Assembly (NCBI GenBank): GCA_963699875.1
Contig: CAVOVN010000011.1
Coordinates: forward strand, 6,744 to 70,743
DNA length: 64,000 bases
Reading direction: 5' to 3'
DNA from: an uncultured Acidobacteriaceae bacterium
GTDB taxonomy: Bacteria > Acidobacteriota > Terriglobia > Terriglobales > Acidobacteriaceae
The notes beneath the pieces are model-generated. The model made no database searches. It saw nothing but the letters and a program-made list of their open reading frames with translations, and was not told where the DNA came from. The translations under genes and the position numbers were made by a program. Positions 4,226 through 60,278 of the stretch are shown in pieces; the first letter of the stretch is position 1; the number at the start of each line of letters is the position of its first letter.

Positions 4226-4724
4226 AGCGATCCTTTCTCGAAGAGCAGGTTGCATTCATAAGTTGAAGCAAACCTGTATCCAAACGGACGCGACGGCCAA
4301 GCTAGGCACCCCCTCACGTCCACTCTTTAGAATCTGTGCCAAGCATTGTACGCGCCATTTGCAACCGAACTGTCACTTTCTAGTAACTTGGCGGACACGG
4401 CTCGGCTTGAGGGATGAGCGAAATGATTAGCGGCGAAAGCTCATGGCAGCAGGAAAACACCCGATTGACGACTATCCGTATCGATAGCCACTATCCACTC
4501 CGCACCAGATAGCGCAAGTCCACCCGTGTCTAACTCACACCGAGACCTGGTTCCATGTATCAGGGAATTGGTGCTGCGAAGTCGGTTCGAAGGAAGCTGG
4601 TGATTGCGATTGGGAGGGATGAGACTGACGGAAGAGTTATGGGTGGTGAGATCTAAGCCCAGGTTTTGTGAGACTACTCAGGCGACCGAAATGGGCCGCC
4701 TGGAGCCAATCGCGGTTTCATGTT

Positions 4725-39836: not shown

Positions 39837-40925
39837 ATGGGGTTTTTCGACAGCCGGACGGCGCGCGCGCTGGCGACCATACTCGTCTTCGTTGTGGCGA
39901 CGTGGTTCGTCTACCAGGTACGCAGCACGCTCGTACTGGTGCTGTTCTCGGTCTTTTTCGCCTACCTTCTTGAGCCCATCGTGCTTCGCATTCAACGATC
40001 GCCGATTGGACGCAACTCGCGCGGCCTGGCAATCCTGGAGACCTACGTCATTTGCGGCGGCATTCTGACCCTGCTGCTGTTCATCTTTGGTCCTCGCATC
40101 GCCGACGATATGCGTCGGCTGATCCAATCCATGCCCAGCTTGCTCGACCGCGTAGCCAGTGGCAAGATCGTCTGGCAGCTCGGCAGTCGCCATGGCTGGA
40201 GCTACGACACGCAAGCCCACATCGAACAGTTCATCGCCAGCCACCGTGATGCCATCGAGAATTTCACCAGCCACATCGGCGCCAGCATTGCCGGCTCGCT
40301 GAAGCACGCCATCTGGTTCTTGCTGATTCCCATCCTCGCCATATTCTTCCTCAAGGACGGGCGCAAGCTGTCGGAAGCCACGATTCACACTTTCAATCGC
40401 CGCGCACAACGACGCTTCCTGCGCGATGTTATCCAGGACCTCGACGAGATGCTCGCGTCGTTTATCGGCGCTCAACTGATTCTCGCCAGCGCGGCGATGC
40501 TCGTTCTGACGAGCTTCTTTTGGCTGATGCATCTGCCTTACGGACTGGCGCTAGGAGTCACCGCCGGATTCTTGGAATTCATTCCTGTTGTAGGGCCGGC
40601 TGTCGCCGCCGCGCTGGTACTCGGAGTAGGATTCCTCGACGCCTTTCCTCACCTGCTGTGGATCGTCGTGTTTCTAGGCTTGTGGCGACTGGTGCAGGAC
40701 TATCTCATCTCTCCTCGCGTTATGGGCAACAAGGTCGAACTGCATCCCATGGCCGCAATCATTGCCGTCTTGATGGGCAACGAGATCGCAGGCGTTATCG
40801 GCGTGTATCTGTCTATTCCAGTCGCGGCAACGCTGCGCATTCTGTGGGTGCGCTGGCAACTCACTCGCGCCCTCCAAACAGACACGAATCAGCCCAGTCC
40901 CGAAACTCGGCGAACCGCAGCGTGA
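39837..40925 (+). CDS. AI-2E family transporter (PerM/UPF0118)
   Basis: 362 aa with about 8 TM helices. Conserved FIPVVGP and LSIPVAA segments typical of the family. Confidence 0.85.
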   Translation: MGFFDSRTARALATILVFVVATWFVYQVRSTLVLVLFSVFFAYLLEPIVLRIQRSPIGRNSRGLAILETYVICGGILTLLLFIFGPRIADDMRRLIQSMPSLLDRVASGKIVWQLGSRHGWSYDTQAHIEQFIASHRDAIENFTSHIGASIAGSLKHAIWFLLIPILAIFFLKDGRKLSEATIHTFNRRAQRRFLRDVIQDLDEMLASFIGAQLILASAAMLVLTSFFWLMHLPYGLALGVTAGFLEFIPVVGPAVAAALVLGVGFLDAFPHLLWIVVFLGLWRLVQDYLISPRVMGNKVELHPMAAIIAVLMGNEIAGVIGVYLSIPVAATLRILWVRWQLTRALQTDTNQPSPETRRTAA

Positions 40926-40933
40926 GGAAGAGC

Positions 40934-41368
40934 TTAAAGCGAAGCCGCGGATTTGCGCGGATCTTCACGGATCATTTTGAAGTCATTGTCCAGTCGCATT
41001 CTTTTGAATTGAGGCCGAGTTCCGAAGTTGAGCAGTAATCCGACCTCGAAGCTTGTGGCCTTCAGATAGTTGAGCAGTTGCGCTTGGTGAATGCCTTCGA
41101 GAGCTCGGGCAGACTTGAGTTCTACGATCACCTTCTCGGCTACGACGAGGTCGGTGCGAAACATGGCCAGCCGTTCGCCGCGAAAATACACCTGCACCGA
41201 TTTTTCAGATTCAACCTTCAAGGCCAAGGACCGCAGGGCGACGATCATCGCTTCCCGATAGACCGACTCAAGAAAGCCGTGTCCGAGTTCGTTGTACACG
41301 TCATAAAAGCAGCCGATGACAACGTCGGTTATTTCGGCGTGCTTGAGTGCGGTTCCGTCATTCGGCAT
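40934..41368 (-). CDS. GxxExxY protein (PD-(D/E)XK nuclease superfamily)
   Basis: GHGFLESVYREAM contains the eponymous GxxExxY motif. 144 aa, the typical length. Confidence 0.85.
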   Translation of the reverse strand: MPNDGTALKHAEITDVVIGCFYDVYNELGHGFLESVYREAMIVALRSLALKVESEKSVQVYFRGERLAMFRTDLVVAEKVIVELKSARALEGIHQAQLLNYLKATSFEVGLLLNFGTRPQFKRMRLDNDFKMIREDPRKSAASL

Positions 41369-41412
41369 CTTTAGTTCCCAATCATCCGTGAAGATCCGCG
41401 TAAATCCGTGGC
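40943..41412. mobile_element. 470-bp cassette: GxxExxY gene bounded by 32-nt terminal inverted repeats
   Basis: 40943-40974 is GCCGCGGATTTGCGCGGATCTTCACGGATCAT. The reverse complement of 41381-41412 is GCCACGGATTTACGCGGATCTTCACGGATGAT, giving 29/32 identical. Confidence 0.45.
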
Positions 41413-42944
41413 GAAAACGCCTTTCCTCTCTTCCGGTTCACCACCCGAATCCCAGCCCGCCAATGCTCATCGAGCTGCACCAGCTGCCATTCGATCTGCG
41501 GCGACACGTATTTCAGCAGCACGCTGGTTGCCGGATGGGTGCGCAGCACTGGCGTGACCAGATACAGAAGAGGCGGAGCATCGGACAACTCACATCGGGG
41601 GAAATAGCCGTTGCGCGCGAAGCCGCCATTCTGCTGGTGCCAGCGGACGCGGGCCCAGTAGTCCAGGCCTTGAATTGCAAGATGAAGGTCATCATCGGCT
41701 TTCAGCTCAAGAATGGCGAGGCGACCGTCAATCGTTACGCTCAGCACGTCGAGCATCGCTCGGTCGGAGGCGGTGAAGGCTGGAACCTGCGAGTAAACGT
41801 GTGCGGGATTCAACCGCTCGTCAATCGAGCGTACGTCGCGAGTGATAAGCGACTCCAGCCAACGCTCGGGACATAGCCGATAAAGCGGATCGCCGTGCGC
41901 ACCGGCAGGATGACGGCTGGTGGTGAGCCGCTCGATGAATCTGTTGAACAGCTCTTCGGTGAACTCGTCGAGCGTGTATTCCGCCGGGCCCATGCCAAAA
42001 GCAATGGTTTCGTTATTGCGAAACGACCCCGCGACCGGAGCCAGCCGTGCCCGCGCGAACTCCAGCCCATACAGCCGGAAGACGATTTCCGTAGGCGATT
42101 CGATACTTACATCCGCGTAGGGAACCAGCTCCTGAATGCGCGTAATCGACGCGGCGAAGCGCTCGCGGGTGGTACGTGGGTCTAGGGCACGAACCAACCG
42201 CGTCGCGAGGTTTCCGTGATCGCGGAAATCGAGCTCCTCGCACGTTTCAGCGCGCCCTCCAACCTGGTATAGCTGCCACTTGACCGCGTTCTGATCGAGG
42301 TGCGCCATGCGCTGGCTCACGATCTCTGCTCGCCCCTGCGGAAGAAAAAGCTTGAGTCCCTCAATGTGGTACCTGTCGGCGCGCTGCCGATGATAGTCCA
42401 GCCAGAGGATGCCAAAAGTAAGCGCCGCATCAATCGACGCCTGGCTCTCATCCCCATTCACGCCGAGAACAGCAAATGCTGACTGTCCATGGCGAACGAC
42501 TGCTCGGGTGTAAACCGGGCTGAACGAATGTTCCAGGTCAGCCTTGGCGCTGACGGATTCGATCTTCGCGCCCGGATACTCGCGCTCCAGCAGACGGACC
42601 AGCAACTTCTGATACTGCGCGCGGCCGGCACGTTGCGCGGTGGCGCTGCGCTGTCCAGCGTCGGCCACGATTTCGAGCACCTCGGGTTTTGACTGCCCAA
42701 AGCGAAGAGCTGATAGGCGGAGCATGCGCGGCCTGGTCTCGAAGTCGAGCACGCGGCGTACGATGTTGCGCTCTTCCGACCACACATGCAGAACGCACTT
42801 GCCCTCGCCTGAGACCGAATACCGGGCAGTGCTGAAATCGAACAACACATCGCCGTTTTCAATTAGCACGGCATGCGGCGCTTCGAGCAGAAAGACTTCC
42901 AACTCGCGGGCGAGTGCCTCGGCGGTGAGAGAGGTGGTCAGCAT
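41382..42944 (-). CDS. conserved hypothetical protein with C-terminal PD-(D/E)XK-like nuclease motif
   Basis: 520 aa. The segment DVLSVTIDGRLAILELKADDD fits D-x(n)-E-x-K. The last 10 codons lie in the right inverted repeat of the neighbouring cassette. Confidence 0.55.
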   Translation of the reverse strand: MLTTSLTAEALARELEVFLLEAPHAVLIENGDVLFDFSTARYSVSGEGKCVLHVWSEERNIVRRVLDFETRPRMLRLSALRFGQSKPEVLEIVADAGQRSATAQRAGRAQYQKLLVRLLEREYPGAKIESVSAKADLEHSFSPVYTRAVVRHGQSAFAVLGVNGDESQASIDAALTFGILWLDYHRQRADRYHIEGLKLFLPQGRAEIVSQRMAHLDQNAVKWQLYQVGGRAETCEELDFRDHGNLATRLVRALDPRTTRERFAASITRIQELVPYADVSIESPTEIVFRLYGLEFARARLAPVAGSFRNNETIAFGMGPAEYTLDEFTEELFNRFIERLTTSRHPAGAHGDPLYRLCPERWLESLITRDVRSIDERLNPAHVYSQVPAFTASDRAMLDVLSVTIDGRLAILELKADDDLHLAIQGLDYWARVRWHQQNGGFARNGYFPRCELSDAPPLLYLVTPVLRTHPATSVLLKYVSPQIEWQLVQLDEHWRAGIRVVNRKRGKAFSPRIYADLHG

Positions 42945-43070: not shown

Positions 43071-43152
43071 CCACGGATTTGCACGGATCTACGCCGAGAT
43101 GTTTCTTATCTCCAGATTTCCGGATCCGCGGTCATCCGCGTAAATCCGCGGC
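43071..43152. repeat. gene-less inverted pair of the GGATTT(A/G)CGCGGATC repeat (MITE-like)
   Basis: CCACGGATTTGCACGGATC at 43071-43089 and CCGGATCCGCGGTCATCCGCGTAAATCCGCGGC at 43120-43152. Confidence 0.7.
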
Positions 43153-43214
43153 TTGATTCCTCTTCTCGGTGATGCTGTAAGCGTCCTCCGAAGCCCGCGA
43201 GACATCCAATAGGT

Positions 43215-48714: not shown

Positions 48715-48779
48715 CTCCTACACAGAGTTGGTAGGAGTTATCAGCCCTTGCGCGGGCGGTTAAGGCGAACTCCATCGCC
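48715..48779 (-). promoter_or_regulatory. fluoride riboswitch (crcB RNA motif) with SD-sequestering platform
   Basis: The minus strand reads GGCGAUGGAGUUCGCCUUAACCGCCCGCGCAAGGGCUGAUAACUCCUAC, then CAACUCUGU, then GUAGGAG (containing the SD). TATAAT lies at 48793-48788. Confidence 0.85.
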
Positions 48780-48888
48780 TGACAACATTATATAAAGTTC
48801 GTTCCCCAGAAGCAGTGCCTTCCGTTGCCAACCCGAAAACGCCCCGACCATTTCTATGACATCCGGATTTAAACGCTGGTTTTTCAGC

Positions 48889-53047: not shown

Positions 53048-53296
53048 CCATTGCCAACTAGCTGTTAGCAACTGCAAAGAAGCAGCCAGGTGATGAGACA
53101 TGGGGCCGTGCGTCCGATCGTGCGTCCCATCCATTCCCTCTAGAGATTCCGGAGTCTCCCATGTGGAATCGGTGGTTCAGACTCCTCAGCTTTGATCCGC
53201 GCCATCCGCGTGATCCGCGCTTCTTCTCCCTCTTCTTCCCCGATCCCAGGCGCCCGTTTGATGATGATGTTTGCCCTCACGCCCATTCTCTTCAAT

Positions 53297-58019: not shown

Positions 58020-60278
58020 TCGCTTCCACAGGGTATTCCGGAGCCTTCGTTTGGTTCTTCTCCTCCTGAGCGAAAGCCGCCCGGAACCAGAGGTGAATCA
58101 GGGACTTAGGTGGCTGGGCTCGATTCCTCCCGAGCACGGCCAGGGCCAAGGGCCAGATCGGTTGAATTAGCAGGTAATCGTGCCGGCCTCATGCAGGCCG
58201 GCGGGCCGAAAGCCGAGTCGAATCCTAGAAATAAGGAGAGAAATAAGGTCGGCGTTCGGTGTTCCTTTCCAAGTCAGCTAACCAACGTTGCCGGGAGTGG
58301 GGTGACTCCCGGCGACTTTCCCTTACAGTCCGGCAACTCCGCAGGAGCGAGATCGTGCCCTGCGGAACTGGATGAGCACTCCGCACGTGTTCCTCCAGCA
58401 GTCGCGGTGACACCGGACCTAACGCACCGAGTGGGGGCTGCCTTCCCGGCCAGAAACCGGCCGACGGAGCAGCCCCCACCGCTTTGCGCGACGGGTAGTG
58501 CGGGCCTTTACGTGGCGTGGCACTGAGCAGGGTAGTGCGATAGACCTTTACGAGTCGCCGTTACGGAGACGATAGAGCTGACCTTTAGGTCCGCGTCGGG
58601 CAAGTGCGAAACAGTTCGAAGTCCCGTAGGGACGACAGATTAAAGCCCCGTCCTTCAGGACTGGGTAATCGACGACAGACTGTACCGCAATCATATCGAT
58701 CAGGAGTTTCCCATGGCCGACGTAACCACAACGACTAAAACCACGAGCGCTTCCACCACGGCAACTACGAAGAAAGCGCCCGGCCTCACCTTCAAACGTT
58801 TCTTCACCACCGCCGGCGTCTCGCCCTATGACGAGCTCGAGTGGGAGCTGCGCCTGGCCCAGATCACCGACGCCAAGGGCGGCGTGATCTTCGAGCAGAA
58901 GGACGTCGAGACTCCCAAGGACTGGTCGATGACGGCGACCAACATTGTCGCCTCGAAATATCTGCACGGCACGCTCGATACTCCCGAGCGCGAAACCGGC
59001 GTGCGCCAGCTCGTGTCGCGCGTAGCCGAAACCATTCGCGACTGGGGTGTCAACGGCGGATACTTCCGCACTCCCGACGACGCCGCCATCTTCCACGACG
59101 AGCTCGCCCACCTGCTGTTGCAGCAGAAGGCAGCGTTCAATTCGCCGGTATGGTTCAACGTGGGCTGCGATCGCATCGAGCCCAACTCCGACGCGCAGAA
59201 CTGGCACTGGAACGCCGCGGAGCAGAAGGTCGAATTCAGCGCCGTCGGTTACACCAAGCCGCAGTGCTCGGCCTGCTTCATCAACTCGGTCAACGATTCG
59301 CTCGACTCCATCCTGACGCTGGCCAAGACCGAAGGCATGCTCTTCAAGTGGGGATCGGGTACCGGCACCAACCTGTCGCCGCTGCGCTCGTCCACCGAGT
59401 CGCTCTCCGGCGGAGGCACCGCCTCAGGTCCGCTGAGCTTCATGAAAGGTTTCGACGCCTTCGCCGGCGTCATCAAGTCCGGAGGCAAGACCCGCCGCGC
59501 CGCCAAGATGGTCATCCTCAACGTCGACCATCCCGACGTCGTCGACTTCATCGAGTGCAAGCAGAAGGAAGAAGCCAAGGCCTGGGCGCTGATCGAGCAC
59601 GGCTACGACGGCTCGGGTCCCGACTCGGAAGCCTACTCGTCCATCTTCTTCCAGAACGCCAACAACTCGGTGCGCGTGACCGACGACTTCATGTACGAAG
59701 TTGTCCGCGACGGCGAGTTCTAGACCAAGTCGGTGAAGGACGGCCGCCCGGTGCACACCTTCAAGGCGCGCGACCTGCTGCGCAAGATTTCCGACGCAAC
59801 CTGGCACTGCGGCGATCCCGGAATGCAGTACGACACCACGACCAATCGCTGGCACACTTCGAAGAACACGGCGCGCATCAACGCGTCGAATCCCTGCAGC
59901 GAGTACATGTTCCTCGACGACTCGGCCTGCAACCTGGCGTCGCTCAACCTGCTCAAGTTCGCGCCCAACGGAACCTTCGACGTCGAAGCTTATCGCCACG
60001 CCTGCGCCGTCGTCATCACCGCGCAGGAGATCCTGGTCGACAACAGCGGCTATCCGACCGAAGCCATCTCGCGCAACTCGCACGACTATCGTCCGCTGGG
60101 ACTCGGCTACGCCAACCTGGGCGCGCTGCTCATGGCCGCGGGCCTGCCCTACGACTCCGATGCCGGACGCGACTACGCTGCCTGCGTCACCGCCATCATG
60201 TGCGGCGAAGCGTACTTGCAGTCGTCGAAGATCGCCGAACTCTGCCAGCCGCTGGCGCCCGCAACAGACAACTACGGC

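Follow-up and report, generated by a model that had tools for sequence, protein, structure and literature searches.

A GxxExxY Nuclease Gene Framed by Phased Heptamer Arrays as One Copy of a Widespread Two-Part Module

A stretch of 64,000 nucleotides from an uncultured Acidobacteriaceae bacterium (contig CAVOVN010000011.1, positions 6,744 to 70,743; the whole stretch is referred to here as the window) contains a small nuclease gene of the GxxExxY family that is enclosed by an inverted repeat. This unit, which spans approximately 490 bp (roughly 40930-41420), represents a two-part module of very wide occurrence, in which a GxxExxY PD-(D/E)XK nuclease gene lies inside two inward-facing arrays, usually of three heptamers each. 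The heptamer of the module is CRCNGAT (CRCGGAT in the window), repeated at a period of 10 bp, with GC at the outer end. The consensus of 300 arms reads as an A-rich stretch, GC and CRCGGAT-nnA-CRCGGAT-naa-CRCGGAT, with the linkers almost free. The reading of the module that fits best is held tentatively and falls just short of being probable: a nuclease that may bind its own flanking recognition arrays, selfish in origin and, in the window, old and resident.

The Cassette in the Window

The nuclease gene (40934..41368, minus strand) encodes 144 amino acids, with the domain at residues 12-123, and is the only GxxExxY open reading frame (ORF) of the 64-kb window. The protein matches PF13366 PDDEXK_3 (E 1e-38, 132.7 bits, cut-off 22), which is its sole Pfam match, and the NCBIfam model TIGR04256 GxxExxY (E 4e-38, 130.3 bits, cut-off 35). 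A repeat search finds inverted arms of 38 nt each, 87% complementary and 393 nt apart. The core of the left arm (40944..40981) consists of three phased heptamers at 40946-40972, CGCGGAT ttg CGCGGAT ctt CACGGAT, with GC before the core, and that of the right arm (41375..41412) of three heptamers at 41384-41410, ATCCGTG aag ATCCGCG taa ATCCGTG, with GC after it; each arm is CRCGGAT three times at a 10-bp period. The right arm starts 7 nt upstream of the nuclease ATG and its first heptamer lies 16 nt upstream. A double-heptamer pattern has seven matches in the window against 0.19 expected, a number reached by no shuffle, and a 29-mer of the arm (at most three mismatches) has two matches against 0.00 expected, so the repeat is far beyond chance.

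An earlier, sequence-only reading of this DNA had described 32-nt terminal inverted repeats around the gene. The identity of 29/32 holds, with the left coordinate off by one (the 32-mer begins at 40944, not 40943). The inverted ends are real, although the label of terminal inverted repeat understates their anatomy, the arms being two arrays of phased heptamers. Both arms are also translated, as that reading had claimed and as the sequence and the ORF translations confirm. The C-terminal residues of the nuclease, MIREDPRKSAASL, lie beyond the Pfam domain and are encoded by the left arm, as is the C-terminal tail IREDPRKSAASL, and the right arm encodes the final 10 codons (SPRIYADLHG) and the stop of the adjacent host gene of 520 amino acids. 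The three-heptamer arrays with their 10-bp period, a gene-less inverted copy 1.7 kb away and a solo array further along the window are features absent from the earlier account. An outward continuation of the inverted repeat (40926-40939 versus 41421-41434) was set aside as probably fortuitous; its right half is made of the conserved RKRGK codons of the host gene, and its left half is not conserved in two close relatives (L201 and L203; L numbers are our handles for loci).

Framing of GxxExxY Genes across the Family

GxxExxY genes were sampled independently of the repeat with a query built from a domain-only alignment (A1), trimmed so that arm-encoded tails cannot bias the sample, and 80 metagenome loci were retrieved. 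Among the 70 loci with enough flank, exact arrays are present on both sides in 39 and on one side in 17, compared with a background of 0.05 arrays per kb away from the gene. In most of the apparent negatives the heptamer is a variant (CGCAGAT, CGCTGAT, CACAGAT or CACTGAT), with position and phase unchanged. The 80 loci are not independent and were therefore grouped by flank homology into 27 sites, where arrays occur on both sides at 16, on one side at 7 and on neither at 4 (background 0.06 arrays per kb).

In cultured bacteria, replicons carry distant members of the family (33-48% identity) that have the same layout but other heptamers. The heptamer is CACAGAG with a 9-nt period in Bacteroides finegoldii and Bernardetia and CGCGAAG in Sphingomonas parapaucimobilis, and a Treponema gene has a single CACGGAT/ATCCGTG pair. 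On the Fusobacteria plasmid pZRK30-1 (L208 1430-1950, approximately 50 nt) and in Prevotella nigrescens (L319, approximately 60 nt), the gene lies between direct rather than inverted copies of a stretch that bears the repeat. Framing by arrays is a general trait of the GxxExxY family and extends across phyla. Its occurrence in many phyla, at numerous unrelated sites, shows that the unit has spread. At two loci (L121 1416-1933 and L122 1458-1910) the arrays face outwards, with ATCNGYG upstream and CRCNGAT downstream; these are apparently the borders of neighbouring palindromes and not the arms of the genes themselves.

Gene-Less Palindromes and the Distribution of Arrays

Three ATCCGYG units at 10-bp spacing were sought in one genome per species, 596 Gb in total, and at least 120 stretches matched, where about 2 are expected by chance according to our own estimate. 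The counts that follow are taken among the matches listed, with the window included for arm pairs. The matches fall in Acidobacteriota, Verrucomicrobiota, Planctomycetota, Chloroflexota, Pseudomonadota (Alpha-, Beta- and Gammaproteobacteria), Desulfobacterota, Spirochaetota, Bacteroidota, Chlamydiota, Nitrospirota, Omnitrophota and others. They form 75 inward-facing arm pairs with bimodal spacers, 70 being short (9-137 nt) and five long (379-467 nt). All five long pairs, namely those of the window, L007 (Terriglobia), L017 (Thermoflexales), L048 (Luteolibacter) and L067 (Sulfuricella), enclose a GxxExxY gene, and clustering of the ORFs beside arms (n=729) yields GxxExxY as the only recurrent family. 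The short palindromes are intergenic, in 35 tandem, 12 convergent and 7 divergent contexts. The repeat is common beside unrelated genes in the form of gene-less palindromes, yet it is strongly associated with GxxExxY, and the syntenic relatives that carry the gene carry the repeats as well; neither of the two outcomes that would have refuted the earlier reading was seen.

The gene-less palindrome of the window (43071..43153) sits between the divergent 520-aa and TldD-like genes. Its left array (43072-43088) has two intact heptamers and a decayed third, and a 35-nt spacer separates it from a right array of three heptamers (43124-43150). The palindrome has the same TTG/TTA linker asymmetry as the cassette, and it is orthologous, though partly decayed, in L201-L203. 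Sharing of this kind is seen elsewhere, as in Sulfuricella, where both palindromes and the cassette have an identical left arm, and the identity of outer linkers is 0.54 within genomes versus 0.39 between genomes. Such sharing indicates genome-specific subfamilies and is consistent with copying within a genome. Four gene-less palindromes stand in a row within 500 bp at L106 4864-5356, three with common linkers, which looks like local amplification. The spacers of short palindromes were considered as possible remnants of internally deleted cassettes; a comparison by eye (Sulfuricella and window) showed no similarity. The solo array of the window (53195..53219, plus strand) consists of ATCCGCG three times at 9-bp, not 10-bp, spacing; the intergenic region around it is long, and no inverted partner lies close by.

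Arrays are also present in viral contigs. In IMG/VR there are 103 stretches, several contigs having many copies between genes, and 40 array pairs with spacers of mostly 11-113 nt; the whole collection holds one distant GxxExxY relative only. Arrays can therefore exist without the nuclease gene on the same replicon. Five candidate viral array pairs enclose unrelated small ORFs with no convincing Pfam match and are too few to interpret. One contig with many intergenic arrays (IMGVR_UViG_3300037067_012809; L283 3023-3100 and 3650-3721, L263 3377-3450) has CACGGAT arrays next to phased copies of a second heptamer, CACGAAG, similar to the CGCGAAG arrays on either side of the Sphingomonas GxxExxY gene. 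A search of plasmids with the consensus palindrome gave one decayed solo array, in Gloeothece.

The Nuclease and Its Family

The protein of the window is a predicted PD-(D/E)XK nuclease, as judged from conserved residues and a structural model. The catalytic-type residues E34, D73, E83 and K85 are invariant or nearly so in alignment A2, and the E...D...E-x-K series is likewise invariant in A1. An AlphaFold2 model built from 37 homologues (predicted local distance difference test score 85.6) has a minimal PD-(D/E)XK core. Residues and model agree with the pattern of such a core, in which a Glu of the first helix (the GxxExxY motif) is followed by D and (D/E)-x-K on an alpha-beta-beta-beta-alpha-beta fold. 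Foldseek ranks Cas4 SSO0001, lambda exonuclease and archaeal Hjc as the best fold matches in the PDB, although TM-scores reach only about 0.5. A sequence search of the PDB returned no solved relative. The GxxExxY/PDDEXK_3 family comprises 14,840 cluster representatives at 50% identity (E up to 0.001). Tandem two-domain proteins of approximately 250-290 amino acids (P0241-P0246 and others) are among its best representatives.

Residence in Operons, Inheritance and Selection

Cassettes are frequently found inside housekeeping operons. The gap between ispD and ispF accounts for 27 of the 80 metagenome loci (within L125-L193, e.g. L139 665-2405), where the cassette has the orientation of its neighbours and the nuclease ORF spans the whole distance between the arms, overlapping the ispD stop and the ispF start, with the arms translated as N- and C-termini. 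One of these loci (L173) has six CGCTGAT heptamers. Other intra-operon sites lie between pyrB and pyrC, bioF and bioD, hydantoinase and beta-ureidopropionase genes, and genes for a MoxR-type ATPase and a VWA protein, and cultured hosts have the gene between fabD and fabG in Sphingomonas and next to radA in Bacteroides. The identities of IspF and GxxExxY proteins correlate at the ispD-ispF site (r = 0.70), so the cassette there has been vertically inherited. The fourfold-degenerate sites of ispF differ at 0.62 (saturated) and the linkers at 0.51-0.57, and essentially every orthologue at this site keeps at least two perfect heptamers per side. A zero difference at the heptamer core positions is a product of the regular expression used to select the arms, whereas the retention itself is not. 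For the gene, the ratio of non-synonymous to synonymous substitution (dN/dS) is 0.13 between the window and L202 and 0.11 between L201 and L203. These comparisons of sequences indicate purifying selection on both the gene and the heptamers.

The site in the window has a similar history. An array-framed GxxExxY gene lies directly downstream of the homologue of the 520-aa gene in L201-L203 (90-91% identity) and in L206 and L207 (approximately 65%). Since a cassette occupies this place even in relatives with a neighbouring protein of no more than about 65% identity, the copy in the window is not a recent insertion; it is ancient, vertically inherited and kept by selection, a resident and not a recent arrival. 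In L204 (520-aa homologue 83% identical) the GxxExxY copy has an in-frame stop and decayed arms and is a pseudogene, and in L205 (80% identical) the cassette has been lost and arm-like relics are kept. Among the four closest genomes, distances are equal for the 520-aa protein (approximately 90%) and for TldD (approximately 96%), whereas their GxxExxY genes fall into two alleles with 84-87% identity within and 66-70% between. Two discordant alleles amid uniform flanks give one hint of exchange and, together with the pseudogene and the loss, are signs of cassette turnover at this site.

The suggestion made from the sequence alone, that the unit is a self-contained and uncharacterised mobile or homing unit, is borne out in part. 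Gene and arms form one unit, with GxxExxY the sole recurrent cargo of the arrays and most independently sampled genes framed, and our literature search found no published description of a GxxExxY gene with flanking arrays and nothing relevant on the heptamer; in the library searched, the few papers that name GxxExxY or PDDEXK_3 do not deal with its repeats. Recent mobility at the window locus is contradicted by the distant relatives that carry the cassette.

A Proposed Mode of Action and the Evidence against It

The encoded nuclease would recognise the heptamers as its DNA sites, and three sites per arm, one helical turn apart, would align several protomers on one face of the duplex, in the manner of multi-site transposon ends. 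Once the arrays were broken or processed, recombinational repair would carry copies of the array-bounded DNA to new places, and it is proposed that such copying accounts for the spread of the gene cassette as well as for the surplus of palindromes without a gene. The nuclease would then be related to its arrays as a RAYT transposase is to REPINs, or as homing endonuclease genes are to their sites. No promoter is recognisable in the cassette, which is co-oriented with host operons and is probably expressed by read-through. Judged on patterns in the sequences, it is possible, and not far from probable, that the heptamers are recognition sites of the encoded nuclease and that its action at the arrays copies the DNA between them.

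Several results weigh against this proposal. A GxxExxY gene lies within 8 kb in only 4 of 120 array-bearing genome loci (among the matches listed), and none is present in the 926 kb around the 103 viral arrays. The protein is a bare nuclease core of 125 amino acids without a separate DNA-binding domain, and its binding or cutting of the heptamers is putative. No target-site duplication of fixed length, which the earlier reading had proposed to look for, was found at the boundaries of 71 short elements among the matches listed, where direct repeats measure 0 nt in 38, 1 nt in 27, 2 nt in 5 and 3 nt in 1. The empty sites in relatives that it had likewise proposed did not appear in clean form at the window site, where L205 keeps its relics. 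A candidate at the ispD-ispF site, the Acidobacteriaceae genome L078 (reverse complement, 4515-4590), has ispD-ispF without the cassette; it was rejected as a clean empty site since the junction holds a different 70-nt spacer with tandem AACGACY heptamers. Inheritance has been vertical over long times, at ispD-ispF and at the window site down to 65% identity. Purifying selection on the arms of resident copies is unlike what is predicted for a purely selfish transposon end. Co-variation of the heptamer variant with the protein in the ispD-ispF set was also considered and set aside as uninformative, as the variant tracks host divergence equally and is confounded with host lineage.

Recognition Sequence or RNA Pairing

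An alternative at the level of RNA regards the module as akin to an rRNA intervening sequence. The arms would pair in the operon transcript around a passenger ORF, and the stem would be cut (e.g. by RNase III), insulate or terminate, making the cassette harmless in operons; the gene-less palindromes would be terminators, stabilisers or processing sites. The cassette RNA is indeed predicted to close with an arm stem of approximately 45 bp (minimum free energy -198 kcal/mol, z -4.0), whereas the palindrome at 43071-43153 folds only weakly as a hairpin (z -1.4). At most sites the cassettes are co-oriented with the upstream operon gene, stop and start codons often overlapping, and the short palindromes are mostly downstream of a gene, as expected under this alternative from the tandem and convergent contexts counted above. 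Of the flanks, one is rich in A and the other in T. A parallel is offered by the 23S intervening sequence of Coxiella, in which an ORF lies inside an inverted-repeat stem excised by RNase III, with GACAGAT repeats beside the ORF (PMC4990558).

The substitution patterns of the arms argue against pairing as the constraint. Although the arms of one element pair at 22.7 of 29 positions versus 19.6 for shuffled partners, the linkers between heptamers pair at 3.2 of 6 positions, and their complementarity is not kept. Across 43 cassettes, mismatches between arms on the sense strand show no excess of G.U (47) over A.C (58). The identity of heptamers at position 2 is 0.85-0.87 within an arm and 0.86-0.88 between arms, against 0.50-0.54 in shuffled controls. 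One element has one heptamer variant, and this is as true within an arm, whose heptamers have no means of pairing with one another, as it is between arms; the shared variant points to a repeated recognition sequence, or to homogenisation among repeats, and not to a helix. The primary sequence of the heptamer is conserved across phyla, and pairing requires neither this nor a single variant per arm. The covariance models of Rfam 15 (at gathering thresholds and with E up to 10) gave no match at the arms or the palindrome, and the arms are not flagged as intrinsic terminators, the search flagging only a 5-bp stem inside the left arm (terminator-like sites 3 versus 2.5 in shuffles). The RNA-level explanation is considered unlikely, while it and the host-level explanation below are each compatible with a nuclease that acts at its own arrays.

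Host Function or Conventional Transposition

A host-level system is a less probable explanation again. The arrays would here be bound by some host factor, or by a GxxExxY nuclease that has been domesticated, and would serve as genome punctuation or regulatory sites and as autoregulatory operators at the nuclease gene, with nothing mobile today. Long-term vertical residence at conserved operon sites, with purifying selection on gene and heptamers, would be expected of such a system, and it would agree with arrays that far outnumber genes and with the frequent intergenic arrays of viral contigs that have no nuclease gene. Cassettes at dozens of unrelated sites in many phyla have, however, moved, pseudogenisation and loss occur, and the type of heptamer changes between GxxExxY clades, which a universal host factor does not explain. 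No family among the PADLOC and PHROGs profiles of anti-phage defence and phage proteins matches the nuclease, and its absence from both leaves GxxExxY without a link to a known host function. A conventional transposon or miniature inverted-repeat transposable element (MITE) with terminal inverted repeats, moved in trans by a transposase encoded elsewhere and carrying the GxxExxY gene as a passenger, would account for inverted ends with several sites each and for short non-coding relatives, but is very improbable given that 65 of the 71 elements have a chance boundary identity of 0-1 nt in place of a target-site duplication, that no recurrent transposase is found near the arrays (both among the matches listed) and that the passenger of the five long pairs is always the same family.

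Comparison with Known Systems

The reading of a nuclease with its own recognition arrays has partial counterparts among described elements. The 23S intervening sequences of Coxiella and Leptospira likewise consist of a small ORF (approximately 120-150 amino acids) in a long inverted repeat, form a unit of 0.4-0.8 kb that is regarded as selfish, and hold the ORF in the sense orientation of the host transcript. The ORF in Coxiella is S23p, a four-helix-bundle protein, and three or four GACAGAT heptamers lie between the stem and the ORF start (PMC4990558). GACAGAT is one base away from the CACAGAT variant of GxxExxY arrays, a likeness that serves as a lead, the repeats having been compared by description. 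The differences are that the host site is rRNA helix 45 or 25 whereas GxxExxY cassettes lie in protein-coding operons, that the ORF is a PF05635 four-helix bundle whereas the ORF of the window is a PF13366 PD-(D/E)XK nuclease, and that the heptamers are described as tandem with a 7-nt period whereas GxxExxY arrays are phased at 10 nt. The window contains no rRNA by Rfam, and none of seven conserved 16S/23S rRNA motifs is present in 208 loci. The statement in the sequence-only reading that 23S rRNA intervening sequences are known to carry GxxExxY genes could not be verified, the documented passenger being S23p (PMC4990558).

Another counterpart in layout may be the REP, REPIN and RAYT systems, reportedly the subject of work by Nunvar in 2010 and by Bertels and Rainey in 2011. 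RAYTs are HUH/Y1 (IS200/IS605-like) transposases that are usually single-copy, and REPs are species-specific imperfect palindromes. As found for the family of the window, the enzyme gene lies between inverted copies of a repeat that is far commoner as gene-less intergenic inverted doublets, the enzyme gene is vertically inherited under purifying selection, and there is no target-site duplication. The enzyme differs, being a PD-(D/E)XK nuclease here in place of an HUH/Y1 transposase; the phased heptamer arrays are common to many phyla, unlike the species-specific REPs; and GxxExxY genes are found at many sites, unlike the usually single-copy RAYTs.

Free-standing homing endonuclease genes include seg and mob of phage T4 ("intronless homing"), and PD-(D/E)XK homing enzymes such as I-Ssp6803I exist. 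These resemble the cassette as small nuclease ORFs wedged co-oriented between conserved, functionally linked genes and, as the cassette may be, present or absent between relatives, but they are without flanking inverted arrays and gene-less derivatives. The ends of Tn7 and Mu are multi-site, and Tn7 uses a PD-(D/E)XK protein, TnsA, at its ends. Inverted ends with several phased protein-binding sites (putative here) and short non-coding derivatives are shared with these elements and with MITEs and insertion sequences, whereas the present copies have no target-site duplication and no DDE transposase nearby and are ancient and resident. An integron cassette carries one attC, with GTTRRRY cores, and depends on IntI. 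Both such cassettes and the PeSL-flanked cassettes of T4-type phages are promoterless small ORFs bounded by conserved stem-loop motifs and subject to modular shuffling, and arrays between genes in some viral contigs recall the PeSL cassettes; the motifs differ, and the outer ends here (GC, or AAC...GTT) misfit the attC core by eye. Resemblances to the attC core of integrons, to the DnaA box and to the CsrA motif GGA were set aside on inspection; the AGAT and TGAT variants have no GGA.

It is doubtful, though worth stating, that phased arrays and GxxExxY nucleases make up an unrecognised cross-phylum class of selfish element, a PD-(D/E)XK counterpart of REPIN-RAYT that colonises the gaps of housekeeping operons, and that the same chassis with a different ORF gave rise to the ORF-bearing intervening sequences of 23S rRNA.

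Significance

GxxExxY/PDDEXK_3 is a very large family without a known function or substrate, and the flanking heptamers provide a concrete and testable candidate target. A dispersed palindromic repeat of many phyla is also defined, the arms of which are currently translated by annotators as spurious tails (e.g. PRIYADLHG in the 520-aa protein and, in the nuclease, IREDPRKSAA). If nuclease and arrays cooperate, a new mode of existence for small genes within essential operons (ispD-ispF, fabD-fabG, pyrB-pyrC) would be at hand, and it could explain the origin of ORF-bearing rRNA intervening sequences. The GxxExxY enzyme might also serve as a compact sequence-specific nuclease.

Neighbouring Genes and Other Features of the Window

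On the left, the cassette adjoins a gene for an AI-2E family transporter (39837..40925, plus strand), the stop codon of which (40923-40925) is 8 nt from the nuclease stop. On the right is the host gene of 520 amino acids (41382..42944, minus strand; stop 41382-41384), which has no Pfam family and whose 3' end has been displaced by the element. The earlier description of a cassette between two convergent stops is correct for the AI-2E and 520-aa genes; the nuclease gene itself is co-directional with the 520-aa gene, in tandem. Relatives of the 520-aa protein without an arm-encoded tail have a native C-terminus of ...RVVNRKRGK(xx) at approximately 510 amino acids, and many other relatives have arm-encoded extensions, e.g. 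PRINADLADS and PRIFTDLHG. The 520-aa ORF belongs to no Pfam or NCBIfam family yet has more than 7,000 homologues, and its gene adjoins the tldD/pmbA pair in every relative inspected. Its C-terminal part (..DVLSVTIDGRLAILELKADDD..) resembles a PD-(D/E)XK motif by eye, and residues 359-433 match PADLOC PDC-S11 weakly (E 0.0013); a look-up of the exact protein sequence returned no record. Elsewhere in the window, Rfam identifies an Acido-Lenti-1 RNA (58620-58665, minus strand, 42.7 bits), which assigns the window to the class Terriglobia of Acidobacteriota, as do the names borne by close protein relatives (Korobacteraceae, Angelobacter, Terriglobales). Rfam also identifies a fluoride riboswitch (48725-48788, minus strand, 60.5 bits).

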